From the NCBI GenBank assembly GCA_031370645.1, contig JANMQV010000152.1, forward strand, positions 64,001-128,000: 64,000 bases of DNA, in the 5' to 3' direction. The stretch comes from Candidatus Eiseniibacteriota bacterium. Its GTDB lineage: Bacteria > Eisenbacteria > RBG-16-71-46 > SZUA-252. Shown here piece by piece: positions 24,790 through 38,962 of this stretch. Position 1 is the first letter of the stretch, and every line of letters starts with the position of its first letter. The translations under genes were made by a program, and so were the position numbers. Under the pieces are notes generated by a model, which searched no databases, was not told the DNA's origin, and saw only the letters and a program-made list of their open reading frames with translations.

Positions 24790-24825
24790 CAGGGCGGAGT
24801 CCAGAAGCGCTCCGCGGCCGAAAGA

Positions 24826-24852
24826 TAAAGAAGGGTGTGAAGTTGCCGATGC
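24826..24852 (+). promoter_or_regulatory. Sigma28 (FliA/SigD)-type promoter
   Basis: TAAA-N15-GCCGATGC versus consensus TAAA-N15-GCCGATAA; 47 nt before the ATG at 24900. Confidence 0.65.
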
Positions 24853-24899
24853 ATGGTCCACACGATGGAATTCCGTTCCGGCACCAGGTGCGAGGACAC

Positions 24900-25634
24900 A
24901 TGAAGCTCGACTGCGCGAGCTGTAGCGCGCGCTATTCGATCGACGAGAGCATCGTTCCGCCGCAAGGGGCGAAGATCAAGTGCCGGAAGTGCGGTGCCGT
25001 GATCTCGATCCCGCCGCGCGTGGAGCCCGCGCCCGTTGTCACGACGCTCGTTCCGCCGTCGCCGCAGCACGCGCCGTCGCCGCAGCACGCGCCGTCGCCG
25101 GTCGCTGCACCGTCGTCCGTCCCTTCAAACAGCGCGACCGCGCCGACTCCCGCGCCGGCCGCTTCAGGATTCAGTTTCTTCTCGAGCAGCGATGCGCCCG
25201 CAGCCCCTCCGCAGGCTTCTGCCGCGCCGCCTGCGCGCGCCGTGGCGCCGTCGCCCGTCGCGCCTTCCCCTCCGCCTCCGCCTCGGCCCGCAGCGCCTCC
25301 CTCGCCTCCCTCGCCCCCGCAGGCCGTTTCCCTCGAGAATGTGCCGCCCGCCGTGGCCGCATCGATTCCCGCAGGGCTCTCGGAGGAGGAGAAGAAGAAG
25401 CACGAGAAGGCGCGCCGCCTCGCTCGCGTGCTCGCCTCCGACATCGCGATCTACAATCGCGAGAAGAAGGAGCGCGGACTGAACGACGGGAACTTGGTCG
25501 CCGTGCTCGGATACGAGATCAAGAAGTCGTGGGAGATCTACAAGGAGCGGGTGGGAACCGATTTTGCGAACGCCACGCCCTACTTCCGCGACGCGCTGAA
25601 CGACCTTCTCGCCGAGGGAAAGAAGATCTTCTAG
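24900..25634 (+). CDS. MJ0042-type zinc-ribbon protein with Pro/Ala linker and helical C-terminal domain
   Basis: CASCSARYSID...KIKCRKC; long Pro-rich linker; KARRLARVLASDIAIYN...YFRDALNDLLA. Confidence 0.8.
   Translation: MKLDCASCSARYSIDESIVPPQGAKIKCRKCGAVISIPPRVEPAPVVTTLVPPSPQHAPSPQHAPSPVAAPSSVPSNSATAPTPAPAASGFSFFSSSDAPAAPPQASAAPPARAVAPSPVAPSPPPPPRPAAPPSPPSPPQAVSLENVPPAVAASIPAGLSEEEKKKHEKARRLARVLASDIAIYNREKKERGLNDGNLVAVLGYEIKKSWEIYKERVGTDFANATPYFRDALNDLLAEGKKIF
25056..25100 (+). repeat. 18-bp in-frame tandem repeat (2.5 copies)
   Basis: CCGTCGCCGCAGCACGCG twice plus a partial copy; encodes PSPQHA repeats. Confidence 0.85.
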
Positions 25635-26926
25635 TCGTTCTGAGTCCCGCCGGCCCCGCCGCGCGAGTCCGCCGCCGCATCACGCTCCGTCCATCGAGCC
25701 CGAAAACCCACGATCCCCGTGAGCGCGAGAAGCGCGCCCGCCGCGAGCACCGCCGTGCGCGGCGGGAGTCCGCGCGCGACCAACGCGCCGGCCGCGCCCG
25801 CGGTCACGAGCACGGCGAGGCGCGCGGCCATATCCCGGAGCGCGAAGACGCGACCGCGTGCCTCCACCGCGATCGCCTCTTGAAGCGCCGTCTCCGCCGT
25901 GACGAGGAGGATGGAGACGAAGAGTCCCGCGCCGAACGCGACGCCGGTCGCGGCGATGCCGTTCGGCACGAACGCGAACGCCGCAAGCGAGGCTCCGGTG
26001 CCGAGAAGTCCCGCCGAGAGCCGCACTCCGGGTGATGCGACCGCTCCCTTTGCGGCGATGCCGAGCGTTCCGAGAATCATCCCGACGGCCGCGGCCGCGA
26101 TGAGCGATCCGACCCCACTCGCCACGCGCCCCGTCTGACCGACGAGAATCGGCACCGTCACGTGGAGCACGCCGCCCGCCATCCAGAGGAGCATCACGGT
26201 GAGCGTGACCATCCAGGCCCGCGGTGTCCGAAGGAGGATCGAGAAGCCCTCGCGGATTTCGGCCGCGAGCTTCCGATAGCGGACGGCTGCGGTATCGCCG
26301 GCGCGCGCCGCCGCGGCAACCGACGCCGACGCGCGAGGCGCCATCCGAATGCGCCAGAGCGCGAGCACCGAGACAAAATAAGTCGCCGCGTCGAGCGCGA
26401 AGCCCCACGCCCAGCCGAATCGATCAATCAGCGCGCCCCCGGCAAGGGAGCCGGCGATCGTCGCGGCCACGCCGGCGAAGGTGGCGAGCGAGTTCGCCTC
26501 CGTCAGTTGTTCCGCCGGAACGAGGAGTGGGACGATGGCCGAACGCGCGGGGAGAAAGAACGTATTGGCCACGTAGAGCGCGAAGACGAGCGCGAAAAGC
26601 GCCGGCAACCCGCCGTAGATCGTAGCCGGGATCATGGCGAGGACCGCGACCCCGCGCGCGAGGTCCGAGGCGATGAGCACACGGCGCGTGTCGGAGCGGT
26701 CGACGACGGCGCCGATCCACGGTCCGAAGAGAATCGCCGGGAGAAAGCTCGCGAGCGGGAGGAGCGCGAGTTCGGCGGCGGGGTTTCCCGGGTCGCGCGC
26801 GCGCGCCACCACGACGGCGAGGAGCGCGAGGTAGGTGAAGCGGTCTCCGAAGATGGAGACGAACTGCCCGATCCAGAGCGAAAGGTAGTTTCGGTCGCGG
26901 GCGAGCGCGCGGACGGCGTTCGCCAT
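25631..26926 (-). CDS. MFS transporter
   Basis: LWIGQFVSIFGD, GAVVDRSDTRRVL (motif A), about 12 hydrophobic segments. Confidence 0.9.
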   Translation of the reverse strand: MANAVRALARDRNYLSLWIGQFVSIFGDRFTYLALLAVVVARARDPGNPAAELALLPLASFLPAILFGPWIGAVVDRSDTRRVLIASDLARGVAVLAMIPATIYGGLPALFALVFALYVANTFFLPARSAIVPLLVPAEQLTEANSLATFAGVAATIAGSLAGGALIDRFGWAWGFALDAATYFVSVLALWRIRMAPRASASVAAAARAGDTAAVRYRKLAAEIREGFSILLRTPRAWMVTLTVMLLWMAGGVLHVTVPILVGQTGRVASGVGSLIAAAAVGMILGTLGIAAKGAVASPGVRLSAGLLGTGASLAAFAFVPNGIAATGVAFGAGLFVSILLVTAETALQEAIAVEARGRVFALRDMAARLAVLVTAGAAGALVARGLPPRTAVLAAGALLALTGIVGFRARWTERDAAADSRGGAGGTQND

Positions 26927-28155
26927 CAGGCGCTGATCGTCTCGAGCGGCGGCGCGGGCTCCGTCAAGCGTTCGGTCACGCGTTCGCCCGGGCGCGCGAC
27001 GGAACGATAGATCTCTTCCAGCCGCGCGGCGATCGAATCCCACCCGTAGCGCGAGGCGTTCGCGAGACCGTTTCGGCCGAGCCGTTTCCGCTCGCCGGCG
27101 TCGGCGAGAAGTGTTCGAAGCGCGGCGGCGAGCGCCTCCACCTCGCGGCGCGGGACCAGGAGGCCGTCCGAGCCGTCCGTGACCACGCAGCGATGGCCCG
27201 GAAGGTCGGTCGCCACGACCGGGACGCCGAGCGCCATCGCCTCGAGCAACACCATGCCGAACGATTCTCCACCGCGCGCCGGGGAGCAGAAGATGTCGGC
27301 GGAGGCGTAGTAGGTCGGGAGGTGGTCGTGCCCGACCCGCCCTTCGAAATGAACGCGGCCGAGGAGCGCGCCGCCGGCCAGGCGCTCGGCCTCGGCGCGG
27401 AGCCGCCCGTCGCCCACGAGAATGAGGCGAAACGGAACTCCCTCGCTTGCCAAGCGCGCCGAAGCGAGAAGGAGTTCGGGAAGGCCCTTCCGCGGATCGA
27501 ACCGGCCGACGAAGAGAATGTTGGGGACGCCGTCGTCGAACCGGTCGAGCCGCGGCGTTCCCGGCGCGAAGCGATCGAGATCGACACCGTTCGGCAAGAT
27601 TTCGATCGGGACGTCGAACTGGCGCGCCGTGTACTCGCGCGCGGCTTCCGACACCGCGATCGCGCGATCGAGTCGCTCCACGTAGCCACGGAGCGCGCCG
27701 CGGAAGAGGCGGATCAATCGGTCGGAGTCGGAGGCCGTGTGAAACGTGCCGACGAGCGGAATCTTCGCGGACGACGCGATCTCGATGGCGAGAAGGGGAA
27801 GCACGGGGGAGATGGGGCAGTGGACGTGCACGACGTCGAACGCGCCGCGCCCGCCGGGGGCCAAGAGGGCGGAGAGTTGGCGGCGAAGAGCCCAGCCGAA
27901 GGTGATGTTGTTCTCGGCGCCGTTGAAGGGAATGATGAAATTCCGGCCGAGCCGCACCACGGTCGCGCCGTCTCGAATCCCCGCGCCGTCTCCGCGCAAC
28001 CGGTCGTCGTCGCCGTCGTCGCCGAAGTCCGACGTCACGATCGTGACGTGATGTCCCCGGGCGTGAAGCGCGCGCGCGGTGCCCGCCACGTGCTCGGTGA
28101 CGCCGCCGACGGCTGGGTGATAGGCCTGGGAGACGATGGCGACTCTAAGCGGCAT
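26926..28155 (-). CDS. GT4 glycosyltransferase, PimA-like
   Basis: GGVTEHV, PFNG, VGTFH, PRKG, GESFGMVLLEAMA. Confidence 0.8.
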   Translation of the reverse strand: MPLRVAIVSQAYHPAVGGVTEHVAGTARALHARGHHVTIVTSDFGDDGDDDRLRGDGAGIRDGATVVRLGRNFIIPFNGAENNITFGWALRRQLSALLAPGGRGAFDVVHVHCPISPVLPLLAIEIASSAKIPLVGTFHTASDSDRLIRLFRGALRGYVERLDRAIAVSEAAREYTARQFDVPIEILPNGVDLDRFAPGTPRLDRFDDGVPNILFVGRFDPRKGLPELLLASARLASEGVPFRLILVGDGRLRAEAERLAGGALLGRVHFEGRVGHDHLPTYYASADIFCSPARGGESFGMVLLEAMALGVPVVATDLPGHRCVVTDGSDGLLVPRREVEALAAALRTLLADAGERKRLGRNGLANASRYGWDSIAARLEEIYRSVARPGERVTERLTEPAPPLETISA

Positions 28156-29101
28156 GCGTCTCAGCCGGCACCACCGCCGCCTCGGAATCGCCGCCGCTCC
28201 CGACGAGCGGGCGGAAGATGCACCACTGTGTCACGTGCGCGGCCACCGCGCGCTCGAGCGCCCGTACCACCCCTTCCGTCATCCGCGATACGTCCTCGGC
28301 GACGCGGCGTGTGAAGTCGGGGCGATCGATCGACTCGAACACGATTCGTTCGCCGCCGTCGGGCTCTCGAACGGTGTACGCGTGGACGATCGGAACTCCC
28401 GCGCGCCGCGCGAGGAGTGCCGGGCCGACGGGGAATTCGGCGAGCGCGCCGAAGAAGCGATGCGATTCACCCCGCGTGTAGACGTCGCCGTCCGCGAGGA
28501 GAATGACGAGTCCGCCGCTTCGAAGCGTTCGAAGGAGCGGGAGAGTACCGTCGTCCTGCGTGCTGACCTCGATCCGATCGGCCTCCTTCGCGGCGCGAAC
28601 GGCATCCGACACGGCGGCGTGGAATTGGACCCCCGTGACGACATGGATCCGAAATCCGAGCCGGGCCATCGTGAGGCCGGCCAGTTCCCAATTGCCGAGA
28701 TGCGGAATTGTGAGGACCGCGCCCCGTCCCCCGGCGAGCGCCCGATAGAATCGCTCCGTGCCGGTGAACCGGGGAGCGGGCGGCGCGGCGCTCCTGCCGC
28801 GGCTCGCGAGGTAATCGAGGCAGCCCCTGTGATACGAGCGGAAGATGGCGTGGCGCGCTTCGCGGCGCTTTGCCTCCGTGGCGAGATCGGGATGCCCCCA
28901 CGCGGCGATGGCGGCGAGGTTTTGTCGGAGCCCGTCGCGTCGATCCGGGGAAAATGCCTCGTCGAGCGCGGCGAAGAGCGATGCGACGAGACGGCGCGCG
29001 GGAGCCGGCAGCGACGCGGAGATGCGGACGGCGAGATCGAGAATCAGGGTTGAACGGGTCGAGGGCGGCGAAAGCGTGGGAAGGGCGATCGTGGGTGGCA
29101 C
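28145..29101 (-). CDS. LpxL/PatA-family lipid acyltransferase
   Basis: PHLGNWE, LADGD, FFG...FPVGPA, QWCIF. Confidence 0.8.
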   Translation of the reverse strand: MPPTIALPTLSPPSTRSTLILDLAVRISASLPAPARRLVASLFAALDEAFSPDRRDGLRQNLAAIAAWGHPDLATEAKRREARHAIFRSYHRGCLDYLASRGRSAAPPAPRFTGTERFYRALAGGRGAVLTIPHLGNWELAGLTMARLGFRIHVVTGVQFHAAVSDAVRAAKEADRIEVSTQDDGTLPLLRTLRSGGLVILLADGDVYTRGESHRFFGALAEFPVGPALLARRAGVPIVHAYTVREPDGGERIVFESIDRPDFTRRVAEDVSRMTEGVVRALERAVAAHVTQWCIFRPLVGSGGDSEAAVVPAETHAA

Positions 29102-29108
29102 CGCCCCG

Positions 29109-29138
29109 ACGCTACGAGATGCTCCGCGCCGGTGTCAA
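29109..29138 (-). promoter_or_regulatory. Sigma70 promoter, probably leaderless acyltransferase operon
   Basis: Minus-strand TTGACA-N18-TAGCGT, then 7 nt to the GTG at 29101. Confidence 0.55.
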
Positions 29139-29170
29139 GGCGACGGCGGGAGCGGCCCGCGGCGTCGGCG

Positions 29171-29200
29171 TTGACTTGACGCGACGCTGGCCCCTAGAGT
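29171..29200 (+). promoter_or_regulatory. Candidate sigma70 promoter
   Basis: TTGACT-N18-TAGAGT, back-to-back with the acyltransferase promoter. Confidence 0.45.
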
Positions 29201-29207
29201 GGGCGCG

Positions 29208-29441
29208 TTATTTCACCCAGCGCGAGGCGTCATCCGGCCCACGGTCTTCCGAGGGTCGGGCGTCGGTTCCGCCGATCTCGAAGAGGGCGTCGGCGGTTTC
29301 CATCCCTTGCACGCACGGGCACGCGTTCCCGCCGGCGGCGTAGGGACAGACGTCGTAGACGCGATTGTCGCGCCGGCAATAGATTTCCGTCGAGGACTGT
29401 CGTGCGCGGCGCGGTTGACGCGGCGTCGTGTCTCGGCTCAT
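29208..29441 (-). CDS. Small Cys-rich hypothetical protein (77 aa)
   Basis: GGGAG RBS 7 nt before the ATG; GC-rich third codon positions; YCRRDNRVYDVCPYAAGGNACPCV; upstream sigma54 motif. Confidence 0.6.
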   Translation of the reverse strand: MSRDTTPRQPRRARQSSTEIYCRRDNRVYDVCPYAAGGNACPCVQGMETADALFEIGGTDARPSEDRGPDDASRWVK

Positions 29442-29528
29442 CGGCGATCTCCCGGCCCGCGAGGGCCTCCGGGTCCGTTCGGAGCGGGCGCCATCGCGGC
29501 GCACACTCCGAGCTCGTTTCCCAGGGGC

Positions 29529-29544
29529 TGCATGACGCGTGCCA
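29529..29544 (-). promoter_or_regulatory. Sigma54 -24/-12 promoter
   Basis: Minus-strand TGGCAC-GCGTC-ATGCA, with exact GG-N10-GC spacing. Confidence 0.65.
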
Positions 29545-29581
29545 CGGAAGCGCCCGAGAAGAAAGGGAGGATTCCAGGCTC

Positions 29582-29995
29582 ATGGCGACCCAGAAACTGG
29601 TCCGTTGCGAAATCCGCAGACCCGGGAGCGAGGAGCCGTCCGTTCGCTTCGTGCCGCTGGAAATCTACGGACTATGGGAACACCTGATGCGGACCAAGCA
29701 TCAGTTCGAAGTCTCCTCCAACATCTCTTCGCTCTGGATCGACGTGGACGAGAATCCCGATGCGGCCTATGGAGAAAACAAGTACGAGCGCGTCACCGAA
29801 GTGACCCTGCTCCGCTATTCCGCGCGAGACGGGATGTTTGACCGGGTGAATCGCTACTTCCCGACCGAAGAGTATCCACTACTCAAGAATCTGCTCCTGA
29901 AGCACTACGAAACTGTCCGAGAGCCGGGCGATCCGAGCCTCCAGGTGCGCGAACGCCAGGGGATCTGGATCCGCCGGGAAACCCGCGCCGCATAA
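29582..29995 (+). CDS. Hypothetical protein (137 aa) with internal duplication
   Basis: AAAGGGAGG RBS; globular composition; no family recognised. Confidence 0.8.
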   Translation: MATQKLVRCEIRRPGSEEPSVRFVPLEIYGLWEHLMRTKHQFEVSSNISSLWIDVDENPDAAYGENKYERVTEVTLLRYSARDGMFDRVNRYFPTEEYPLLKNLLLKHYETVREPGDPSLQVRERQGIWIRRETRAA

Positions 29996-29996
29996 C

Positions 29997-30029
29997 GCAT
30001 TTCGCGAAATGCCGTGCGCCCTGCACGGC
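29997..30029. promoter_or_regulatory. Tandem inverted repeats, candidate enhancer (UAS) or terminator
   Basis: Perfect 16-bp palindrome GCATTTCGCGAAATGC (29997-30012), then GCCGTGC-N5-GCACGGC (30011-30029). Confidence 0.45.
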
Positions 30030-30149
30030 GATTCGGCGGGCCCTCGGCGATGGTGGCCGCGCCCGTGGTTTCTCTAGGCTAATGCCTTCTCGTTTCAGCC
30101 CTTAGCCTTCCGCTCCCAGCCCCTCGCAAGAAGCGGCCGCACCCATCGC

Positions 30150-30165
30150 TGGCACACATCGTGCT
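30150..30165 (+). promoter_or_regulatory. Sigma54 -24/-12 promoter of mglA
   Basis: TGGCAC-ACATC-GTGCT, GG-N10-GC spacing, about 100 nt upstream of mglA. Confidence 0.6.
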
Positions 30166-30261
30166 GACCACCGGTGCGGGCCGGCGCTGCGCCATTGCAT
30201 TTCGGCGCCCCGCGCCATTCGACGCCAATCCACGGAAGCAGGAACAGCAAGGAGCGACGCC

Positions 30262-31377
30262 ATGGTGGTGGTCAGCTATTCGGGGCGGGAGATCAACGCC
30301 AAGATCGTTTATTACGGCCCCGGTCTCTGCGGGAAGACGACGAACCTCGAGAAGATCTACGACAGCGTCCCCGAGACCCACCGCGGCCGCATGGTGTCGA
30401 TGAAGACCCAGACGGATCGCACGCTCTTCTTCGATCTCCTTCCGCTCGACTTGGGCGAACTGCAGGGGATGAAGACGCGTTTTCTTCTCTACACGGTGCC
30501 GGGTCAGGTCTACTACAACGCCACGCGAAAGCTCGTGCTGAAGGGCGTCGATGCCGTCGTCTTCGTCGCCGACTCTTCGCCCGACAAGATGGCCGAAAAT
30601 CGCGAGTCGCTGTCGAACCTCGAAGCGAACTTGAAGGCCTACGGCCTCGACCTGAAGACCATTCCTTGGGTCCTCCAGTACAACAAGCGAGACCTTCCGA
30701 ATGCGCTCACCGTCGAGGAGATGGACAAAGAACTGAACAAATACAGCGTCCCGACCTACGAGGCACAGGCGGTGAACGGCGGCGGCGTCTTCGAGACGCT
30801 CCGCGGGATCAGCAAGCTCCTCCTGGCCAAGATTTCGAAGGACGTCACGGAACGGGATCGGGGAAGCCTCGGCGGAACGCCCCGGGTAGCTGACGGGAAG
30901 GCGGAACGGAAGCCGGCAGTCGCCGACGAGGCCCCGATTTCGAAGTCGGCTCCCGCGCCGAGAGCGCCGGTCGTATCGAGCGCGCCCGCGGAGCCAGAGT
31001 TTCTCCCCGAGAACGCGTTGCTCGACGAACCGTCTCCCATGCGCGTGGAGCCGGCCCCGAGCGCGGCGGACGAGGCGCTCGTCCTCAATGACGCCGACTT
31101 CGTCCGGGAAGGGGACGCCGGCCCGGCCTCCCGCACGGGCGGCGGCGAAGACGGCTTCGAGCGCGACGCGTCGTACGAGTATCGCGACGGACACGAGGGA
31201 GACCTGTCGAACGCCCGGCGGATCACGGTCCCAATCGACCTCGGCAAGTTCCCGCCCTCCGGGAAGCTCAGGGTCACGTTCGAAGTTCGCATCGAGCTCG
31301 ACGAGGAGCCGAAGGTCGCGTCGAAGAAGAAGAAGGGGAACTCCGAGTTCTACCAGGAACTCGATCGGACGCGCTGA
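30262..31377 (+). CDS. mglA: MglA-family small GTPase with long C-terminal extension
   Basis: KIVYYGPGLCGKTTNL, DRTLFFD, YTVPGQ, QYNKRDL; about 175 extra C-terminal residues. Confidence 0.92.
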   Translation: MVVVSYSGREINAKIVYYGPGLCGKTTNLEKIYDSVPETHRGRMVSMKTQTDRTLFFDLLPLDLGELQGMKTRFLLYTVPGQVYYNATRKLVLKGVDAVVFVADSSPDKMAENRESLSNLEANLKAYGLDLKTIPWVLQYNKRDLPNALTVEEMDKELNKYSVPTYEAQAVNGGGVFETLRGISKLLLAKISKDVTERDRGSLGGTPRVADGKAERKPAVADEAPISKSAPAPRAPVVSSAPAEPEFLPENALLDEPSPMRVEPAPSAADEALVLNDADFVREGDAGPASRTGGGEDGFERDASYEYRDGHEGDLSNARRITVPIDLGKFPPSGKLRVTFEVRIELDEEPKVASKKKKGNSEFYQELDRTR

Positions 31378-31416
31378 TCCGCGCGCCGCGAGGCGTCTGT
31401 TCGACCATGAATCGAG

Positions 31417-31441
31417 AAAAGGCCCCGATCGGGGCCTTTTT
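31417..31441. terminator. Intrinsic, potentially bidirectional terminator after mglA
   Basis: AAAAGGCCCC-GATC-GGGGCCTTTTT. Confidence 0.85.
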
Positions 31442-31444
31442 CCG

Positions 31445-31473
31445 TTGACCTCCGCGCTCCAGGTTTCTAGGCT
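31445..31473 (+). promoter_or_regulatory. Sigma70 promoter, probably leaderless TPR gene
   Basis: TTGACC-N17-TAGGCT, then 6 nt to the GTG at 31480. Confidence 0.65.
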
Positions 31474-31479
31474 CCGCGC

Positions 31480-32505
31480 GTGGATCGAGCGCTCCCTCTC
31501 CCTCTCGCCGAAAACGCCGTCACGAGCGATGAGTCGCGCGCGGGGGACCGCCTCGCGCTCGCCGAGCGCCTCGCCGAGAGCACGTCCAATCCCGAAGCGA
31601 TGCTTCAGGCCGCCCGTTTCTTCGCGCTCGAGGGGCTTCGGGATCGCGCGATCGATACACTTCGTCAGGCCATGCTCGCCCATCCGCGCAACGTCGAGAT
31701 TCTCTCGCTCCTGGCCGACCTCCTCTCGCGGGGAGGATCGTTCGAGGACGCCGACCAGGTCTTCCGCCAGGCGCTCGATCTCACTCCGACGCACGCCGAG
31801 ACGTGGTATCGCCGCGGTCTTCACGCCGGGCGGCAGGGCTTCGCGGCCGCCGCGCGAGAGGCTTACGAGGAGGTCGTGCGCCTCGACGAGCGCCATGTTC
31901 GCGCCTGGGTGAACGTCGGCCTCGCGCGCGCCGATCTGGGCGACCGCCGGGCGGCCGTCCGCGCCTTGGAACGCGCTGTCGTCGTCGATCCCGCTTGCAC
32001 CGAGGCGCACACGAACCTCGGCATTCTCTACATGGAGGGGGGGCTCCGCGAGGAGGCCGTTGCCGAGTTCCGCGACGCCGTCCGCCTCAGTCCCGAGAGC
32101 GGGGAGACGCACTTCAATCTTGGCTGGGCGCTCCTCGCCCATGAGGAGTTGGAACAGGCCGAAGGGTCGCTCGAAGCGGCCACGCGAATCGATCCGCGAA
32201 ACCCCGAGGGGCTCTATGCGCTGGCGCTCCTGCATCTCAAGGTGGGGAAGAACGCCGCCGCCGTGGCCGATTTGAAGGCGGCGATCGCGCTCCGCCCCGA
32301 CGACGGGCGCTTTCATTATCATCTCGCCGTCGCCTACAACAATCTCGACGCGGTCGATCAGACGATCCTGGCGCTCGAGACCGCCGCGCGGCTCGTTCCC
32401 GACGATCCGCGCATCCACCGGCTTCTTGGCGTGGCCTTCGACAAAAAGGAGCTTCCCGCGCGCGCGCGCGAGGCCTATCGGCGCGCGGCGGCCCTCGGCG
32501 AATGA
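31480..32505 (+). CDS. TPR-repeat protein
   Basis: Multiple 34-aa repeats (AWVNVG, AHTNLG, THFNLG, FHYHLA). Confidence 0.9.
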   Translation: MDRALPLPLAENAVTSDESRAGDRLALAERLAESTSNPEAMLQAARFFALEGLRDRAIDTLRQAMLAHPRNVEILSLLADLLSRGGSFEDADQVFRQALDLTPTHAETWYRRGLHAGRQGFAAAAREAYEEVVRLDERHVRAWVNVGLARADLGDRRAAVRALERAVVVDPACTEAHTNLGILYMEGGLREEAVAEFRDAVRLSPESGETHFNLGWALLAHEELEQAEGSLEAATRIDPRNPEGLYALALLHLKVGKNAAAVADLKAAIALRPDDGRFHYHLAVAYNNLDAVDQTILALETAARLVPDDPRIHRLLGVAFDKKELPARAREAYRRAAALGE

Positions 32506-33362
32506 CGCCGGCCGGAGCGACCGGCACGGCCGGAACGCCCCGGCGAATCGCTGCCGCGTTCACCGCCGCCCGCGGCTCCGGGCGCGGCGGATTCATCCCC
32601 TACCTCACCTCCGGATTCCCGACCCTCGCCGAATCGGATCGTCTCGCCGCCTCGCTCTGCGAAGAAGGGGCCGACGTGCTCGAGCTCGGCGTCCCCTTTT
32701 CGGATCCGCTCGCCGACGGTCCGATCATTCAGCAGACGACGCAGGTCGCGCTCGAGGCGGGCACCACGCTCGCGCACGTGCTGGGCCAGGCGCTTCGGCT
32801 CCGAGCGCGGCATGACACACCGATCGTCCTCATGACCTACTTGAACCCGGTATCACGATACGGATCGCGGCGCTTCGCCGAGGACGCCGCCGCGGCGGGG
32901 GTGGATGGAATCATCGTCGTCGATCTCCCTCCGGAGGAAGAGCCCGAGACGTGGGCGGCCTTCGACGACGCCGACATCGACACGATCGCGCTCGTGGCGC
33001 CGACGACGGGCGGCGAGCGCCTCGCGACCATCGCCGCACGCGCGCGCGGATTTCTCTATGTCGTCGCGCGGCTCGGCGTGACGGGGCAGGGCGGAGGAGA
33101 CTCAGGCGCGATCGAATTGCTCGATCGCTGCGGGCGCGCCACGCGGCTTCCGCGCGCGCTCGGTTTCGGCATGACGCCGGAAACCGACCTCGCGCCCTAT
33201 CACGGGCACGCGGAGGGAATCGTCGCGGGATCATCGCTTCTTGATCCGCTGCTCTCGTCCTGGAAACGGGACGGCGCGGGCGGGGCCGCCGCGCGTGAGG
33301 AGATCCTGCGCGGAATGGCTCGCCGCTTCCGCGCGAACGTGGGCGGATGGCGCTCCGCCTAG
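32502..33362 (+). CDS. trpA: Tryptophan synthase alpha-chain homolog (stand-alone here)
   Basis: LELGVPFSDPLADGPIIQ, LMTYLNP, DLPPEE, LVAPTT, GVTG, GFG. Confidence 0.88.
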   Translation: MTPAGATGTAGTPRRIAAAFTAARGSGRGGFIPYLTSGFPTLAESDRLAASLCEEGADVLELGVPFSDPLADGPIIQQTTQVALEAGTTLAHVLGQALRLRARHDTPIVLMTYLNPVSRYGSRRFAEDAAAAGVDGIIVVDLPPEEEPETWAAFDDADIDTIALVAPTTGGERLATIAARARGFLYVVARLGVTGQGGGDSGAIELLDRCGRATRLPRALGFGMTPETDLAPYHGHAEGIVAGSSLLDPLLSSWKRDGAGGAAAREEILRGMARRFRANVGGWRSA

Positions 33363-34186
33363 TCGGCCGGCGGCTCTTCGCGCTTGCGCTTCTCGTAAGA
33401 CCGCTCAATCTCGTCGCCATCGGCTTCGCCGCGTGGGTCGGGGCGCGCCTCGCCTCGCGCGAGATCGGGGTCGCGACGCTTCTCGTTCCGGTGATGATCG
33501 GCGCCTTCGGCTACGCGCGAAACGACGCCACCGACTTGAGCGCGGACCAACTCAATCGCCCCCTGCGGCCGGTCCCGTCGGGAGCGGTCTCCGCGCGCGC
33601 GGCTTCGATCGTCGCCTGGAGCGCGCTCGCCATCGCGGGCGCGCTTCTGCTCGTGGAATCGCACCCTCCCGTCCTGTGGGGGATCGCGATCGCCGCCGCC
33701 CTCGCGCTCTACCTCTACAGCCCGTGGCTCAAGGACCGCGGCGCCGCGGGACCGCTTGCGATCGCCGCTCTCACCGTCCTCGCGGTGCTCTGGGGCGCCC
33801 AGGGCGCGCCGCGTTTCGAGCTCAGCCTCTTGACGGGACTCTTGGCCGGCGCCGCGCAATTCGCCCGCGAGTGCGTAAAGCAGTTGGAAGACGCGCCGGG
33901 GGACGAAACCGCCGGAAGAACGACGTGGGCGGTACGAAGCGGAAGCGTGGTGGTGACGCGCGCCGCGAGAATGGGTCTCATCGCGGCCCTTCTCCTCGTC
34001 CCTCTGCTGAAGACGGGGGGCGGCCTCGATGCAGGGAGGTCGACGATCGCGCTCCCCGCCGCGGCGCTTCTCCTTCTCTTCCCGCTCTTCGCCCTGGGCG
34101 CGAAGTCTCCTCGCTACCGAATGATCTCGAGGGGAATCAAGGTGGCGCTCTTCGGCGGACTCGTAGCGCTCGCGGTTTCGGCGTAG
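33347..34186 (+). CDS. UbiA-family prenyltransferase, DGGGP-synthase-like
   Basis: RPLN, NDATDLSADQLNRPLRPVPSG, ARECVKQLEDAPGD; multiple TM helices. Confidence 0.85.
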   Translation: MALRLVGRRLFALALLVRPLNLVAIGFAAWVGARLASREIGVATLLVPVMIGAFGYARNDATDLSADQLNRPLRPVPSGAVSARAASIVAWSALAIAGALLLVESHPPVLWGIAIAAALALYLYSPWLKDRGAAGPLAIAALTVLAVLWGAQGAPRFELSLLTGLLAGAAQFARECVKQLEDAPGDETAGRTTWAVRSGSVVVTRAARMGLIAALLLVPLLKTGGGLDAGRSTIALPAAALLLLFPLFALGAKSPRYRMISRGIKVALFGGLVALAVSA

Positions 34187-34198
34187 GGGAGGGAAAAA

Positions 34199-35224
34199 CT
34201 AGAAACCGAAGATGGGCAGATTCGAAATCTGCCAGAGACTCCGCACGCCGCCCCGTCCCTGGGACGAGACGATGAGCCCCTGTCCATCGGGCGTCCACGT
34301 CGGCGTGAAGACCGAGCCGTCCGAGTCGTCGAAGGAAACCAGGACGAGCCCGTTCGCCTCGCCGGTCGGCTTCACGACCCAGAGGCCCCAGCGATTCGTT
34401 CGATCCGAAGTGAACACGATCCGCCCGCCGTCGGGGCTCCACCGGGGGCCGTAGTCGTGACCGGCGCCGGTCGTGATCTGCGTCGGGAGGGAGTCGCCCG
34501 CCGCCAAATTCAGCGTGTAGATGTGGCGGGTCAGGTCGGTCGCGTTCTCGACGCTGAAGGTGAGCTTCTGCCCGGTCGGGTCCCAGTCGGGTTCGCCGCA
34601 GCGGAGCGTATCGGGCGTGAGGTAGATCCGCTGGAAGGGGACGGCCGCCGTATCGGGGACGAGGACGACGCGGCCCCGGATGTCGGCGCTTCCCGGGGTC
34701 GCGCTGAGATTGTCGTACTCGATGTATGCGAAGCCCGGGGAGCCCGGACGCGGCGCGGGGGCGCTTTCATTGGACGGAAACGTGGTGAAACGGCGATCGA
34801 CATCGGTGTCGAGGTCGCGATACCAGATGTCGTAGGTACCGTTTCGATTCGACTGGTAGATCACCGTCTGGGAGCGAACCCAGCGGGGCCGGAAATCGAC
34901 CCACGAAGCCGGACCCGGATAGTTGAGCACGAGCGAGGAACTGCCGTCCGCCAAGATGACCGCGAGGCGCGGCCGCCCATCGATCCCGAGCGAATTGAAG
35001 ATGATCGAGTCGCCGCGAACGTCCGGGTAGAGGCACTCATCGAACGACGTGGGGGTGAGCCGCGCCCACTGAGCGCCCGTCAGCGGCGGCTCGGTCACGC
35101 CTTTTCCGTCGCACGAGACGAGCGAGAACGCCAGCACGCCCGCGGCCGCGAACTTCAGCCACGCGTTTCGGAATCCCCCTCCTCCACTCGCACGAATCAC
35201 CATGGGGCGGCACGTTACCACCAC
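34199..35224 (-). CDS. TolB-like (PD40 propeller) lipoprotein; start uncertain
   Basis: Lipobox-like SLVSC; PRWSPDGGRIVFTSDR, PTWTPDG. Confidence 0.8.
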   Translation of the reverse strand: MVVTCRPMVIRASGGGGFRNAWLKFAAAGVLAFSLVSCDGKGVTEPPLTGAQWARLTPTSFDECLYPDVRGDSIIFNSLGIDGRPRLAVILADGSSSLVLNYPGPASWVDFRPRWVRSQTVIYQSNRNGTYDIWYRDLDTDVDRRFTTFPSNESAPAPRPGSPGFAYIEYDNLSATPGSADIRGRVVLVPDTAAVPFQRIYLTPDTLRCGEPDWDPTGQKLTFSVENATDLTRHIYTLNLAAGDSLPTQITTGAGHDYGPRWSPDGGRIVFTSDRTNRWGLWVVKPTGEANGLVLVSFDDSDGSVFTPTWTPDGQGLIVSSQGRGGVRSLWQISNLPIFGF

Positions 35225-35308
35225 GGCCCTTGCATCACAAGGCCGTGGCTCGATCGGGCCCTGCCTCGCGCTTCGTGATTCGCCCGTCGTTCCGCTCGGT
35301 TTCGCCGT

Positions 35309-35335
35309 TCAGATGGGCTCCCGCCCTGCCGATCT
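35309..35335 (+). promoter_or_regulatory. Candidate sigma28-type promoter of the csrA operon
   Basis: TCAG-N15-GCCGATCT; the -35 is degenerate. Confidence 0.4.
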
Positions 35336-35407
35336 CTGATCGGGACGGGAGAAGGGCGCGCGTTGGCCGGTGAGACGCGCGTCGCCCTGCTCCGCCGAAC
35401 CTGAACC

Positions 35408-35422
35408 CCAGCAGGATGCTGG
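35408..35422 (+). promoter_or_regulatory. CsrA-binding hairpin in the csrA leader
   Basis: CCAG-CAGGATG-CTGG: GGA in a hairpin loop, matching the CsrB-type CAGGAUG repeat. Confidence 0.6.
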
Positions 35423-35438
35423 AGAAATCGAGGGCACG

Positions 35439-35693
35439 ATGCTCCTCCTGACACGAAAGCTCGGCGAGAATATCCGGATCGGCGACGACGTGAAGATCAC
35501 GATCGTCGAAGTGAAGGGAAATCACGTGAAACTCGGAATCGACGCACCGCCGAGCGTGAAGGTCCATCGCGAGGAGATCTACGAGCGCATCCAGGCGGAG
35601 AATCGCCGCCTACGCGACGCTCAGACCCCGAACGGCGGCGCCACTGGCGGCGCCCCTCCGACGCGTGACGGCGAAAACAACGGCCAGGCGTAA
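35439..35693 (+). CDS. csrA: Carbon storage regulator CsrA
   Basis: [25 protein letters not shown]...VKLGIDAP...VHREEIY. Confidence 0.96.
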
Positions 35694-36057
35694 GCGGCCG
35701 GCCGCGCGGAAGCGCCGGCGAACCGGCCCGCGCCGCCGCGATCTCCGCGACGTCATGGGCCGGTGGCTCGAGCGTGGCGATCAGGTGACCGCCCTCTTCG
35801 AGTGCGCGCTCCGGGGCTGCCTTCTCGGGGATCGCCAGGTGACGGAAGAATCGATCTACGAACTGATGCGTGCTCTTGACTCCCAGGGACGGGCCGCGGG
35901 GAATCGGGTGCTGGAGCACTTCGATACCTGCCTCACGGATGTGGCGGAGGGCGAATTCGAGGACGTGTTCCAGGCGCTCTCGATGCTCCGTGACCACTGG
36001 GTCGAAGCGCTCGACGCGCTTCGGAGGGACTATCGCCGTGCCGACCGCCTCCACTAA
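35665..36057 (+). CDS. Divergent FliS-like helical protein
   Basis: Helical pattern LFECALRGC...IYELMRALD...[18 protein letters not shown] resembles the FliS LRxxW end; adjacent to csrA. Confidence 0.5.
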
Positions 36058-36235
36058 AGACCGGCCCCACGTGAACGAGGCCGACATGAACGGGCGCATC
36101 GAACTCGCCCGCCGCCGGATTTCCGAGGGCTTCTACAATCGCCCCGAGGTCCGCCGGACCGTTGCCACGCTCCTCCTCAGCGACCTGGCGCGCGCCAAGC
36201 GCCCGGCTGGAAGTTCCCGCCCCGAAACCGCTTGA
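36038..36235 (+). CDS. FlgM-like (anti-sigma28 C-terminal domain) small protein
   Basis: GGAGG RBS and GTG; RIELARRRISEGFYNRPEVRRTVATLLL resembles the FlgM R-x-I-xx-G-x-Y...A motif. Confidence 0.55.
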   Translation: MPTASTKDRPHVNEADMNGRIELARRRISEGFYNRPEVRRTVATLLLSDLARAKRPAGSSRPETA

Positions 36236-36369
36236 CCCCCGTCTCCAACGACTGGTAAATATGTAGCCACCTACCGCCACGCCCTATTGGGGGCGGGTGA
36301 ATCGACCGTTCGCCGTCTGGCACCTGGGGGCTCAAGGATGACGCCACCGCCCGGCTGGGAAGCCGCCTG

Positions 36370-37569
36370 TTGAGAGCTCGCCCCGCCCTTACCACTCCGA
36401 CCGCCGAAAGCGGACCTCCCCCTTCCACGACGCTGGAAGTGGCCTGGAGCTTCCTCAGACACGCTCAGATGGGCGTTCTGGCGGCCAACCGCCAGGGGAA
36501 GATCGTCGCCTCCAATCCCGCCGCCGCGAAGCTCCTGGGCTTCGAGCAGGCCGATCTGGAAGGCGAGGACGCGTCGCGGGTGTTTCGGGCTCCGCGAGGC
36601 GATGGTCATCTTCAGCCAGGGGCCACCGCCGCCGCCACCGAGCCGCAGGAAGTGGAGGTCGTGACGAGGGCGGGGGACGTCCTCCCGGTCGCGCTTCGCC
36701 TCCTGCCGCTCGAAGGGCTCGACGGCGCGCTCCACGGCACGGTGGCGGTCTTCCAGGACCTCCGAGAGCAGAAAGCGCGCGAGGAGCAGTGGCGCCGCCG
36801 CGACCGCCTCGCCTCTCTGGGAGAACTCTCCGCGGGAGTGGCCCACGAGATTCGAAATCCGCTCACCGGGATCGCCACGTCGGCCCAGATTCTCCGCCGC
36901 CGAGTGGAAAGCGGCGATCCACGGGGGCAGTTCGTCGACTTGATCCTCGAGGAGTCGGCGCGCCTGGAGCGGATCGTGGAAGGGCTCCTCCAATTCGCGC
37001 GTCCCGCCGCACCCCGCCTGGAGCGCCAGAACGTCGTTCCCGCGCTCGACAAGGCGCTCACGCTGGTTCACGAATTGGCGGTGCGGCAAGACGTGCTCCT
37101 CCACGTGGAGCGATCGGCCGAGGTGCCGCCCGTCTTCGTCGATGTCGATCAGGTCCTCCAAGTACTCCTGAACGTCCTCATGAACGCCCTTCAAGCCCTC
37201 GCGAAGGGGGGCGAGATTCGCGTCACGATCCGTCCCGCGCGGAAACGCGCCGCCGCCCGCAGCAGCATCGGCCGGCGCGCCACCGATCAGTTGGAGCCGG
37301 CCGCGGACTTGCCGCTCCTCGACGTCGTGGAAATCCGAGTACAAGACAACGGGCCGGGCATTCCGGCCGCTGACCTCGCGCGCGTCTTCGATCCCTTCTA
37401 CACGACGCGCGCCCAGGGGACCGGCCTGGGGCTCAGCATCTGTCAGAGCATCATTCGGGAGCATGGCGGTACCATCACGATCGAAAGCGTCGTGGGGCAG
37501 GGAACCGCCGTGATCATCGATCTACCCGTGGAGAAGAGACATGGAGACAGACGTCGCGACCCTCGTTAG
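36370..37569 (+). CDS. Cytoplasmic PAS-HisKA-HATPase sensor kinase; start uncertain
   Basis: NPAAAKLLG PAS, AHEIRNPL, QVLLN, DNGPG, GTGLGL; no TM segment. Confidence 0.93.
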   Translation: MRARPALTTPTAESGPPPSTTLEVAWSFLRHAQMGVLAANRQGKIVASNPAAAKLLGFEQADLEGEDASRVFRAPRGDGHLQPGATAAATEPQEVEVVTRAGDVLPVALRLLPLEGLDGALHGTVAVFQDLREQKAREEQWRRRDRLASLGELSAGVAHEIRNPLTGIATSAQILRRRVESGDPRGQFVDLILEESARLERIVEGLLQFARPAAPRLERQNVVPALDKALTLVHELAVRQDVLLHVERSAEVPPVFVDVDQVLQVLLNVLMNALQALAKGGEIRVTIRPARKRAAARSSIGRRATDQLEPAADLPLLDVVEIRVQDNGPGIPAADLARVFDPFYTTRAQGTGLGLSICQSIIREHGGTITIESVVGQGTAVIIDLPVEKRHGDRRRDPR

Positions 37570-38962
37570 GCAGACGTACAACCTTTTGGTCGTGGACGAC
37601 GAACGCACCCTCCGCTTCACGCTGAAGGAGAGCCTGTCGGAGGAGGGGTATCGCGTCGAGACCGCCGCGGACGTCGCCGAGGCAATGAGCCTCCTCGAGC
37701 GCGAGGAGTTCCACGTGGCGCTCGTCGATCAGAAACTCCCCGACGAGAGCGGCCTTCAGCTCCTGAAGCGGATCAAGACGAAGCGGCCCGAGACGCAAGT
37801 CATCATCATGACCGCATTCGGGAAATTCGCGAATGCCATCGAGGCGGCGCGCGCCGGCTGCTACGACTATGTCGCGAAGCCGTTCGAGCTCGATCACATC
37901 AAGATCGTCATCGGAAACGCGCTCAAGGAGATTCGCCTCAGCGAGGAAGTGGCTCGCTTGCGCGCCGTGGAACGCCGCCGCGCCGGCTCGACGCTCATCG
38001 TCGGCGGCTCGACACGCATGGTCCGCCTCTTCGAGAAACTGAAGAAGGCGGCCTCCACCGGGACCTCCACCGTGCTCCTCCAGGGGGAAACCGGCGTCGG
38101 CAAGGAACTCCTGGCGCGCGAGTTGCACGATCTCGGCCCGACGAGCGACGGCCCGTTCGTGGAGCTCAATTGCAGCGCCGTCCCCGAGAATCTCCTCGAG
38201 AGCGAACTCTTCGGCTACGAGAAGGGCGCCTTCACGGACGCCAAGCGGACGAAGAAGGGGCTCATGGAACTCGCGAACGGCGGGACGCTCTTCTTGGACG
38301 AAATCGGCGAGATGTCGCTCGCGCTCCAGGCGAAGCTGCTCCGCGCGCTCGAGGCGAAGCGCTTCCGCCGCCTTGGCGGCACCACCGACGTGCACGTCGA
38401 CACGCGCATCGTGGCGGCCACGAACAAGGATCTCAAGTCGCTCGTGGCGCAGCAGAAATTCCGCGAGGACCTCTTCTACCGTCTCGACGTCATTCGCATC
38501 GACGTGCCGCCCCTTCGCGAGCGGCCCGAGGACGTTCCGGCGCTCGTCGATCACTTCGTCGCGAACTTCAACCGGGAACTCGGGAAGTCGGTGAAGGGGG
38601 CTACGGACGAAGCGATGGGGCTCATGATGGCGTACCCCTGGAGGGGGAACGTCCGCGAGCTAAAGAACGTCCTCGAGCGCACCATTCTCCTCGAATCGGA
38701 TGAGTGGATCCTTCCCGAGCATCTCCCGTCGGAAATTGTCGGCGTCGGCGGTTCGGGAACGCAGGTGCTGGAGGCCCGCCTCCACACGGAGGGGGGCGTG
38801 ACGACGCTCGCGCAGGCGGAGCGCGTCGCGATCGAGATGGCGCTTTCTCACGCCGGCGGCAACAAGACGCGCGCGGCCGAGGCGCTCGGCATCTCGCGCC
38901 AGACGCTTCGGACGAAGTTGAAGGAGTATCGGATCGAGGGCCCCGCCGGCCATGCCGGCTGA
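37541..38962 (+). CDS. Sigma54-dependent response regulator (REC-AAA+-Fis HTH)
   Basis: VVDDE, GETGVGKE, ESELFGYEKGAFTDA, FLDEIGE, WRGNVREL, AAEALGISR. Confidence 0.95.
   Translation: METDVATLVRQTYNLLVVDDERTLRFTLKESLSEEGYRVETAADVAEAMSLLEREEFHVALVDQKLPDESGLQLLKRIKTKRPETQVIIMTAFGKFANAIEAARAGCYDYVAKPFELDHIKIVIGNALKEIRLSEEVARLRAVERRRAGSTLIVGGSTRMVRLFEKLKKAASTGTSTVLLQGETGVGKELLARELHDLGPTSDGPFVELNCSAVPENLLESELFGYEKGAFTDAKRTKKGLMELANGGTLFLDEIGEMSLALQAKLLRALEAKRFRRLGGTTDVHVDTRIVAATNKDLKSLVAQQKFREDLFYRLDVIRIDVPPLRERPEDVPALVDHFVANFNRELGKSVKGATDEAMGLMMAYPWRGNVRELKNVLERTILLESDEWILPEHLPSEIVGVGGSGTQVLEARLHTEGGVTTLAQAERVAIEMALSHAGGNKTRAAEALGISRQTLRTKLKEYRIEGPAGHAG

Follow-up and report, generated by a model that had tools for sequence, protein, structure and literature searches.

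The window, i.e., the whole 64,000-nt stretch of contig JANMQV010000152.1 of a Candidatus Eiseniibacteriota bacterium analysed here, carries between 22.7 and 40.2 kb a row of five regulatory genes of flagellar type: csrA, the FliS-like open reading frame (ORF) ORF2, the FlgM-like ORF3, and the genes for a soluble PAS histidine kinase and a sigma54-dependent response regulator (Table 1). All five are real genes, the list given in an initial annotation of the window is correct, and no flagellar structural gene was found in the window, as that annotation had stated; the genes around the regulators are otherwise housekeeping. The lineage keeps in ancestral order csrA, fliS, a truncated flgM and a FleS/FleR-type pair, and on a second contig (C99) fliN, fliO, flhG and fliA, with conserved sigma28 and sigma54 promoter motifs before these retained regulators and before a few non-flagellar genes. 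The window probably represents one half of a flagellar regulatory cascade that has outlived the flagellum and has been retained and repurposed.

The host is an uncultured soil bacterium, whose assembly comprises 3.0 Mb in 247 contigs with 68% G+C (95.4% complete, 0.27% contaminated). Random ORFs are abundant at this base composition, and genes were therefore called by a codon-usage score and then confirmed with Pfam. The 40 relatives used for comparison comprised 24 family members from four genera and 16 genomes from other families of the class, including the flagellated class-mate G035, for which every ORF of G035:C1:84-160 kb was compared with this genome by tblastn and the key ORFs were annotated. 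Promoters were judged by motif and conservation across loci, with the consensus sequences for FliA (sigma28) sites, TAAA-N15-GCCGATAA, and for sigma54 sites, TGGCAC-N5-TTGC[AT], as reference. The protein complex modelled here scored 0.62, a mark reached by 58 of 80 solved complexes but, among 110 mismatched pairs, by only 2. Scans with generic sigma70 and terminator patterns gave no excess over shuffled controls (1 vs 0.9 and 11 vs 9.4, respectively). A sediment metatranscriptome run (X1) contained 0.07 of the sampled words and yielded on positions 24000-40000 only short contigs with 90-95% likeness, mostly to the conserved AAA+ domain; these are genes of other organisms and therefore uninformative on expression or start sites.

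Table 1. Genes and predicted regulatory elements between 22.7 and 40.2 kb of the window
Feature	Position	Strand	Remarks
recG	22720-24789	+	
Sigma28-type promoter before ZnR, TAAA-N15-GCCGATGC	24826..24852	+	same element in 22/22 family loci
Zinc-ribbon protein (ZnR)	24900-25634	+	Pfam PF13717 E 1.3e-11; TIGR02098 match; GltJ N-terminus likeness
MFS transporter	25631-27043	-	
GT4 glycosyltransferase	26926-28155	-	
Lipid A acyltransferase-like (lpxL-like)	28145-29101	-	
77-aa Cys-rich ORF	29208-29441	-	conserved Cys codons
Sigma54 element before Cys-rich ORF, TGGCAC-N5-ATGCA	29544-29529	-	24/24 family loci, 2/4 outside
orf137, conserved 137-aa ORF	29582-29995	+	
Candidate enhancer (upstream activating sequence), CGCATTTCGC / GCGAAATGC then palindrome GTGC-N5-GCAC	29996..30026	+	125-155 bp before sigma54 element
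Sigma54 element before GTPase, TGGCAC-N5-GTGCT	30150..30165	+	96 nt before ATG 30262
371-aa MglA-family GTPase	30262-31377	+	Arf PF00025 E 3.9e-7
TPR protein	31480-32505	+	
trpA	32502-33362	+	
UbiA-family prenyltransferase	33347-34186	+	
PD40/TolB-like protein	34199-35224	-	
Weaker sigma28-type promoter before csrA, TCAG-N15-GCCGATCT	35309..35335	+	conserved in 13/13 family loci
csrA leader hairpin, GGA in loop (CCAGCAGGATGCTGG)	35408..35422	+	CC.GCAGGA.GC.GG in 13/13 loci
csrA	35439-35693	+	PF02599 E 1.7e-26
ORF2, 100 aa, divergent FliS homolog	35755-36057	+	
ORF3, 49 aa, FlgM-like	36086-36235	+	
Sigma70-type promoter of kinase-regulator operon, TTGACC ... TGGTAAATAT	36232..36262	+	13/13 loci; overlaps ORF3 stop codon
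Two GGA hairpins in kinase leader, CAAGGATG at 36333 and CGGCTGGGAAGCCG at 36352-36365	36330..36365	+	13/13 loci
Soluble PAS-HisKA-HATPase histidine kinase	36370-37569	+	Pfam
REC-sigma54 AAA+-HTH_8 response regulator	37541-38962	+	Pfam
tgt	38997-40157	+	

Flagellar ancestry of the regulatory genes

CsrA scores well above the cut-offs of its models (PF02599, 92.4 bits vs 27; NF002469, 99.7 vs 73), and the order csrA-ORF2-ORF3 is kept in 13/13 loci. ORF2 is present in 23 of the 24 family genomes with 40-96% identity; outside the family it matches only the flagellated G035, G030 and G038 (E 7e-7, 3e-6 and 3e-3), at loci located between flagellin and fliD. The counterparts in G035 and G038 are bona fide FliS, scoring PF02561 at 1e-13 and 4e-12, and an hhalign comparison of the ORF2 group with the FliS group of the flagellated genomes gives 98.0% and E 1.7e-13 over 88 columns. 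The AlphaFold2 model of ORF2 is a four-helix bundle (pLDDT 88), for which the top folds found by Foldseek in the PDB are the FliS chains 6gow_E and 5maw_E, weakly matched (E 0.02-0.03, TM ~0.6). Judged by profile and predicted fold, ORF2 is a divergent FliS homolog, and it is one without a flagellin client, which is found neither in this genome nor in five family genomes.

In relatives, the micro-protein ORF3 is 35-65 aa long and has the invariant core ARRR...Y.R..VRR, with ARRRI..G.Y.R.EVRR as the fuller conserved sequence. ORF3 aligns only to the last ~40 residues of two longer proteins (hhalign 97.3%, E 1.9e-11), an 83-aa ORF of G035 that lies directly before the kinase gene in the flagellar cluster and a 104-aa ORF of the flagellated G039. 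These long forms are the only proteins here that touch the Pfam FlgM model (PF04316), at 22.5 and 13.4 bits and thus under its cut-off of 25, and the PDB profile search with ORF3 returned FlgM (9wsf_B) at E 0.34. The Pfam FlgM model also fails in four of five flagellated relatives, and its absence from this genome therefore carries little weight. The modelled complex of FliA with ORF3 reached 0.62, compared with 0.00 for the best control, with at least 68% of contacts shared between runs and a partner pLDDT of at least 64; its interface comprises FliA residues 185-246, i.e., region 4. The model favours, without showing it, the binding of ORF3 to this region. ORF3 lacks the N-terminal part used for export, which the flagellated relatives possess and the aflagellate relatives do not. 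ORF3 may be read as a FlgM reduced to its predicted sigma28-binding part. The FliS-like and FlgM-like assignments made originally thus hold, both by profile comparison, the former also by fold and the latter by the complex model.

The ancestry of the whole set is best seen in G035, where the kinase is 40%, the regulator 50%, FliA 61% and the GAF-GGDEF protein 41% identical to the proteins of this genome. The G035 supercluster runs on one strand from recG, ZnR, TPR, trpA, FlgK/L-sized ORFs, FliW and csrA through two flagellins, FliS, FliD, FlaG, the FlgM-like ORF, the kinase and the regulator to ~19 kb of structural ORFs, FlhA, an FlhF-like gene, FliA and GAF-GGDEF, and the best matches of its regulators here are the genes of the window and of C99. 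Because the same regulators occur in the same order in a flagellar supercluster, we consider the window cluster to be its collapsed remnant, a regulatory residue. A correspondingly collapsed order, i.e., orf137, the long GTPase and, further on, csrA, an ORF3-like gene, the kinase, the regulator, (REC), flhG, fliA and GGDEF, was found in other aflagellate families (G032, G037, G031, G028, G036 and G034) and in a second locus of the flagellated G039. Outside the family the regulator gene is followed by a sigma54 element and then by REC/flhG-fliA in five of six loci. The single family locus among 13 that has no kinase within 1.3 kb after csrA-fliS-ORF3 is L021 (G004:C66).

The kinase-regulator pair adjoins flagellar genes in G035, not in this genome. 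Its proposed FleS/FleR (FlrB/FlrC)-type domain architecture stands, the two genes are orthologs of the G035 pair situated directly before flagellar structural genes, and by position the pair is the FleS/FleR-type counterpart. The curated NCBIfam models FlgR and FlbD give the regulator 305.5 and 307.5 bits against a cut-off of 750, with AtoC and NtrC scoring higher. The TTG/GTG start of the kinase gene is conserved. All regulator orthologs seen (L034, L063-L070) have the loop sequence GAFTDA except L069, which has GSFTSA; two other activators of the genome share GAFTDA and a third one has GSFTDA.

Loss of the flagellum and the remnant on contig C99

The genome contains rpoN (219.6 bits) and a FliA/WhiG sigma factor with Pfam regions r2, r3 and r4 (TIGR02479, 260.5 bits vs a cut-off of 189.6; NF005413 FliA, 239 vs 201). 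In the whole genome no match was obtained for the families of FlhA, flagellin, FliW (PF02623) and rod proteins; G035, by contrast, carries FliW beside csrA. FlhF is absent as well, and ~20 structural ORFs of G035 (104-123 kb) have no ortholog here by tblastn, which gave only three weak matches at unrelated loci. Across the class, FliA is above the cut-off in 40/41 genomes and CsrA was found in 35/41, while FlhA is above the cut-off in 0/24 family genomes vs 6 of the 16 genomes of other families. The family is aflagellate yet retains sigma28. The presence of rpoN and fliA with no flagellin had been set beforehand as the outcome in favour of repurposing. That a flagellar regulon exists and was missed, given 247 contigs and 95.4% completeness, is extremely improbable: the lack of FlhA extends to all 24 family genomes, flagellin was found in 0/5 family genomes tested, one of them a single contig, and wherever fliN, fliO and flhG were all found (17 family loci out of 20 tabulated) their junction is unbroken within one contig, with no space for fliPQR-flhBA-flhF.

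C99 (7.4 kb) encodes on a single strand queA, a 56-aa basic ORF, a FliN-like protein (PF01052, 35 bits vs a cut-off of 23.8), a FliO-like protein (PF04347, 29.7 bits vs 22), a MinD/FlhG-like ATPase, FliA, and HDOD and GAF-GGDEF proteins. This is the canonical order fliN-fliO-[fliPQR flhBA flhF]-flhG-fliA from which the bracketed genes are gone. The FliN-like gene is present in 19/24 family genomes; fliN and fliO occur together in 20/20 of the tabulated loci, which include queA in 16 and flhG in 18. The operon that extends from the 56-aa ORF through fliN, fliO and flhG to fliA is preceded by tandem promoters, each kept in 19/19 loci, i.e., a sigma28 site TCAAG[TA][TA]T...GCCGAT at C99:5595 and a sigma54 site at C99:5480-5465. 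The 56-aa ORF between these promoters and fliN (C99:5218-5388, minus strand; locus L010) has a C-terminus RRYL.F.RA.. conserved in the aligned family loci and was assigned to no protein family. In the FliN-like protein (C99:4882-5208, minus strand), the N-terminal sequence MSRLL[TS]..EI.AL is invariant in 19/19 sequences; it resembles the N-terminal peptide of FliM/FliY that binds CheY-P and FlhG. This peptide could tie FlhG or a CheY-like protein into the circuit.

Two other explanations of these genes have to be considered. According to the first, the flagellum was lost and these genes persist in a state of decay, no longer having a function. The FliS-like and FlgM-like proteins have indeed diverged beyond the reach of Pfam, FlgM has been cut to 49 aa, and FliW, FlhF and all structural genes are gone; moreover, a published model predicts repression of B. 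subtilis hag for few of the CsrAs of Eisenbacteria (PMC13443453), which would also fit a changed role of CsrA. Decay is nevertheless very improbable. The reading frames are intact across four genera down to 40% identity (FliS 23/24, FliN-like 19/24) with invariant residues present, the promoters are conserved and the neighbouring intergenic sequence is not, and further aflagellate families of the class have retained the same regulators. The pattern suggests that flagellar switch genes are kept under selection without the genes of the flagellum.

The second explanation, which we regard as improbable, is an old and separate sigma28 system of non-flagellar nature, WhiG-like and tied to c-di-GMP, that lies beside flagellar genes in some members of the class. 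It would account for the occurrence of FliA in 40/41 genomes and of FlhA in only six, for WhiG as the best NCBIfam name of the sigma28 gene of this genome, and for the HDOD and GAF-GGDEF genes following fliA. In the flagellated G039, G033 and G040, FliA is encoded twice, by a gene close to flhA and by another situated a few kb away from csrA, which may come from duplication or re-acquisition; in G039 the FlgM-like gene, too, occurs in both a long and a short version. As these three genomes are flagellated and have a second FliA by flhA, the cascade may be an old paralogous system and not a recent relic, which counts against its derivation by recent loss. On the other hand, G035 has a single FliA, and its pair, csrA and FliS lie within the flagellar cluster in the order of the aflagellate genomes. 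The family operon keeps fliN and fliO in canonical order before flhG-fliA, a pattern that fits deletion and not a separate origin.

Predicted promoters, candidate CsrA sites and the long MglA paralog

The sigma28 motifs noticed before the zinc-ribbon gene and, in weaker form, before csrA are present and conserved in relatives. The motif of ZnR is strict TAAA in 8 and [CG]AAAG-N14-15-GCCGAT[AG] in 14 of the 22 family loci, and outside the family it was seen in 0/2; the real start of the gene is the ATG at 24900, not 24837. ZnR is present in 24/24 family genomes and consists of an MJ0042/Zn_ribbon_4 N-terminus, a Pro-rich linker and a conserved C-terminal part of ~80 aa, and its Atlas clusters are unnamed Zn_ribbon_4 proteins. 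It is a predicted sigma28 target. The promoter of csrA belongs to a block TTCAGATG-N12-TGCCGATC kept in 13/13 family loci. A further site precedes the gene of a PilB-like ATPase with MshEN, T2SSE and a C-terminal double zinc ribbon (C156:29438-31603, plus strand; L124/L128), an isolated gene flanked by purF-like and tRNA-synthetase genes. The promoter of this gene is of sigma28 type in 12/12 loci of genera g1 and g2, a mismatch being present in one of them, and a sigma54 element occupies the same place in 12 loci of genera g3 and g4. In another family (L066) a sigma28-type element lies 103 nt before the long GTPase gene, and this, together with the swap at the PilB-like gene, indicates that both sigma factors share targets in the class.

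Four independent conserved sigma28 sites fit T[AC]A[AG]-N15-GCCGAT. A strict scan of the genome for AAAG-N13-16-GCCGAT[AG] gave 16 matches, of which three are clearly intergenic, the ZnR site being one; relaxed patterns were noisy (131 matches, 31 of them non-coding-like), and only conserved sites were kept. The motifs are unlikely to be chance occurrences; across the promoter loci the spacers vary and the -24/-12 or -35/-10 letters are fixed.

The sigma54 motifs initially described upstream of the GTPase gene and, on the opposite strand, of the Cys-rich ORF are likewise present and conserved across the family. The former is strict in 21 of the 24 family loci with upstream sequence (-91 to -114) and has one mismatch in two more, with five variable spacer letters and fixed GG/GC. 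The Cys-rich ORF, whose conserved Cys codons were aligned in 23 loci, is a predicted sigma54 target; Pfam and NCBIfam give no usable match for it or for orf137. The pattern TGGCA[CT]-N5-NTGC[ATC] occurs at 51 sites genome-wide, 44 of them in non-coding-like context. Just after the GTPase sigma54 element, the 5' leader contains a conserved GGGCCGGCGC...CCGCGCC at 30173-30215, possibly a leader structure.

Of the GGA sites ascribed to the csrA and mglA leaders, the hairpin before csrA is conserved and is a candidate site of CsrA autoregulation, while those in the GTPase leader are only partly conserved and overlap the Shine-Dalgarno sequence. The two GGA hairpins of the kinase leader are candidate CsrA sites too, and the second one lies directly before the start codon, at the ribosome-binding position. 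The motif CA[AG]GGATG has 112 occurrences in the genome, 37 of them non-coding-like.

The GTPase had been taken for the MglA of a polarity module. The gene does belong to the MglA family; it is, however, a 371-aa paralog without an MglB neighbour, and the canonical mglB-mglA operon lies on C204, with the sole PF03259 (Robl_LC7) match of the genome. Residues ~1-195 of the paralog are MglA-like, with 54% identity to the 192-aa MglA of C204 over residues 3-214, and are followed by a C-terminal extension of ~175 aa. It is present in 24/24 family genomes, and its Atlas neighbours are long MglA-family proteins of a type widespread in Acidobacteriota and Myxococcota. In Myxococcus, MglA and MglB form a polarity module and SofG is an MglA paralog longer than MglA. 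The present system is alike in having a longer GTPase of the same family, an mglB-mglA pair and type IV pilus ATPases in the genome, and unlike in the absence of an MglB-like gene beside the window GTPase. To our knowledge, mglA has not been described as being under the control of a sigma54 promoter. The conserved orf137 (44-96% identity over 17 sequences) accompanies the long GTPase gene throughout most of the class; as a Roadblock/MglB-like partner it found no support, with a model pTM of 0.48 and only ribosomal-protein noise in Foldseek at E>=0.06.

The gene may be linked to the cascade by a composite upstream element, GCGAAATGC-N0-8-CGTGC, of which the genome has exactly two copies, at the promoters of the GTPase gene and of the fliN operon; the former lies 125-146 bp before its sigma54 promoter, and the latter 115-145 bp before its own in a block invariant in 19/19 loci. 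Because the genome encodes 19 sigma54 activator domains, the assignment of the neighbouring regulator to the GTPase gene rests only on this element, which was defined post hoc, and we hold it as a tentative possibility. Alternatively, the cascade is functional and the GTPase gene and the Cys-rich ORF are driven by another activator, their nearness being inherited synteny only. Besides the 19 activator domains there are ~44 candidate sigma54 promoters to choose from, the block also holds recG, trpA, ubiA, GT4 and lpxL-like genes in class-wide order, the regulator lies 6 kb from the GTPase gene with unrelated genes on both strands between them, and the flagellated G035 has the regulator and no long GTPase. 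This alternative is still rather unlikely, in view of the composite element, whose only other copy lies equally far from the promoter of the fliN-fliA operon, the sigma28-type element before the long GTPase gene in the L066 family, and the exchange of sigma28 and sigma54 promoters at the PilB-like gene among genera. An enhancer common to the targets of the window regulator and the sigma54 promoters of G035 was not found.

A proposed circuit retained without its machine

We hypothesize that a sigma70-type promoter of its own serves the kinase-regulator operon and that the phosphorylated regulator would, with sigma54, activate the operon from the 56-aa ORF to fliA and possibly the long MglA paralog. 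FliA would in turn transcribe its own operon, csrA-fliS-flgM, ZnR and, in this genus, the PilB-like ATPase gene, the short FlgM would hold sigma28 via region 4, and CsrA would exert feedback at the GGA hairpins of the csrA and kinase leaders, damping the translation of both proteins. As there is no export apparatus to remove FlgM, its release would most likely occur by a protein partner, for which FliS is a candidate, or by turnover. The output is likely to be the control of surface motility or cell polarity, through the pilus ATPase and the MglA-like GTPase. The idea of a flagellar hierarchy kept or repurposed around a small GTPase is thus supported as far as the retained cascade is concerned, while its wiring to MglA is only inferred.

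One of the closest known systems is the hierarchy of polar flagellates (FleS/FleR, FlrB/FlrC, FlgS/FlgR), in which a soluble PAS kinase and an NtrC-type regulator act with sigma54 and are followed by FlhF/FlhG and by FliA held by FlgM. The likeness comprises this pair, the flhG-fliA operon with a sigma54 promoter in front of it, the late genes csrA, fliS and flgM with promoters of sigma28 type, and the gene order of the flagellated G035. The differences are that genes for export apparatus, ring, rod, hook and filament, FlhF and FliW are absent here, that the predicted targets are non-flagellar, and that the FlgR and FlbD models score far below their cut-offs. The activity of such two-component systems is reported to be tied to formation of the flagellar export apparatus (PMC7064773). 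With no genes for an export apparatus or MS ring, the usual assembly signal and the secretion of FlgM cannot exist here, and the signal must therefore differ.

A search of the literature on Eisenbacteria flagellar biology and on flagellar regulators kept after flagellar loss, with supplementary files outside its scope, gave no description of this cascade and found one studied case, Lysobacter enzymogenes OH11. This non-flagellated bacterium keeps flagellar export genes that affect twitching by type IV pili (PMC7277350) and has lost the regulator FleQ (PMC9927559). Both cases involve flagellar-derived genes retained after loss of the flagellum and linked to motility of pilus type. Lysobacter, however, keeps FlhA, FlhB, FliI and FliR, whereas here, in a different phylum and known from sequence alone, the apparatus is gone and the two-component system, FliA, the FlgM-like, FliS-like and FliN-like proteins, CsrA and FlhG are kept.

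Partner switching between FliS and FlgM and between CsrA and FliW offers a further parallel. FliS of Salmonella binds FlgM (PMC8527033, citing Yokoseki 1996, Galeva 2014, Xu 2014), and FliS is therefore the obvious candidate for its release; in B. subtilis, CsrA binds GGA hairpins in a leader (PMC13443453). The genes fliS, flgM and csrA are adjacent here as well, but there is no flagellin for FliS or CsrA, no FliW, and FlgM lacks its N-terminal part.

Sigma factors of the sigma28 family also act outside flagella, as WhiG of Streptomyces and sigma28 of Chlamydia do. They resemble the present system in a FliA/WhiG-family factor without flagella, here with c-di-GMP genes beside fliA, and differ from it in that flagellar ancestry is visible here in the synteny of fliN, fliO, flhG, fliS and flgM and that the anti-sigma factor is FlgM-like, not RsiG-like.

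Several results weigh against the interpretation of the locus as a retained and repurposed cascade. ORF2 and ORF3 have no Pfam match even at E<=10 and no usable NCBIfam match, PF02561 (FliS) has none in the genome at E<=1, and the PDB profile search with the ORF2 alignment did not return FliS. The link of ORF3 to FlgM runs via sub-threshold matches of its relatives (E 1.3e-4, 0.094 and 0.18), and the complex model may owe its score to sigma28-FlgM structures already solved. In the regulator, the loop that contacts sigma54 is GAFTDA, not GAFTGA, as also in the G035 ortholog. Recognition of every promoter here is by motif and conservation. The regulators are part of a ~20-kb block, including recG, trpA, GT4 and lpxL-like genes, that is syntenic across the class, and linkage alone is therefore weak evidence. 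With regard to the GTPase, its sigma54 motif was found in 1/8 loci outside the family, and the sigma54 and sigma28 pattern scans gave no site at the mglBA operon of C204. The composite upstream element is expected ~0.3 times by composition and observed twice, and at the GTPase gene it is well conserved only within the genus, with the GTGC-N5-GCAC palindrome reaching across four genera.

The retained cascade is of interest as a natural experiment in which a checkpoint circuit has lost the machine under its watch, with regulators kept and apparatus lost, the reverse of the one studied case in Lysobacter. For a phylum without cultured members and of unknown biology, it predicts that sigma28 governs a small, testable regulon and that an MglA paralog is driven by sigma54. 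A minimal FlgM with the sigma28-binding part only must be released without secretion, and FlgM-like control outside flagella is testable with four small proteins. Going further, although we think it unlikely in its full extent, the flagellar assembly checkpoint might have become an independent timer in the cytoplasm that controls surface motility and polarity. This closed loop would include the two-component pair, sigma54, FlhG, the FliN-like protein with its FliM-type peptide, FliA, a secretion-less FlgM, FliS and CsrA. FlgM would be antagonized by FliS through partner switching and no longer by export, CsrA would close the loop on the kinase mRNA, and the outputs would be the long MglA paralog and the PilB-like ATPase. 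Such a timer would be old enough to coexist, in some members of the class, with a second, truly flagellar set of FliA and FlgM.

Two minor observations concern other parts of the genome. The near-palindrome TGGCACC[GA]TTC[CA]TGCC, picked up by the sigma54 pattern at eight intergenic sites (e.g., C48:9481, C186:16726, C208:7473, C210:33315 and C217:19008), seems to be a repeat or binding site of another kind. At C94:900-7800 there is a likely type IV pilus cluster, where a pair of neighbouring T2SSE ATPases occurs together with a sigma54 activator and with a 148-aa ORF preceded by a sigma54 element.

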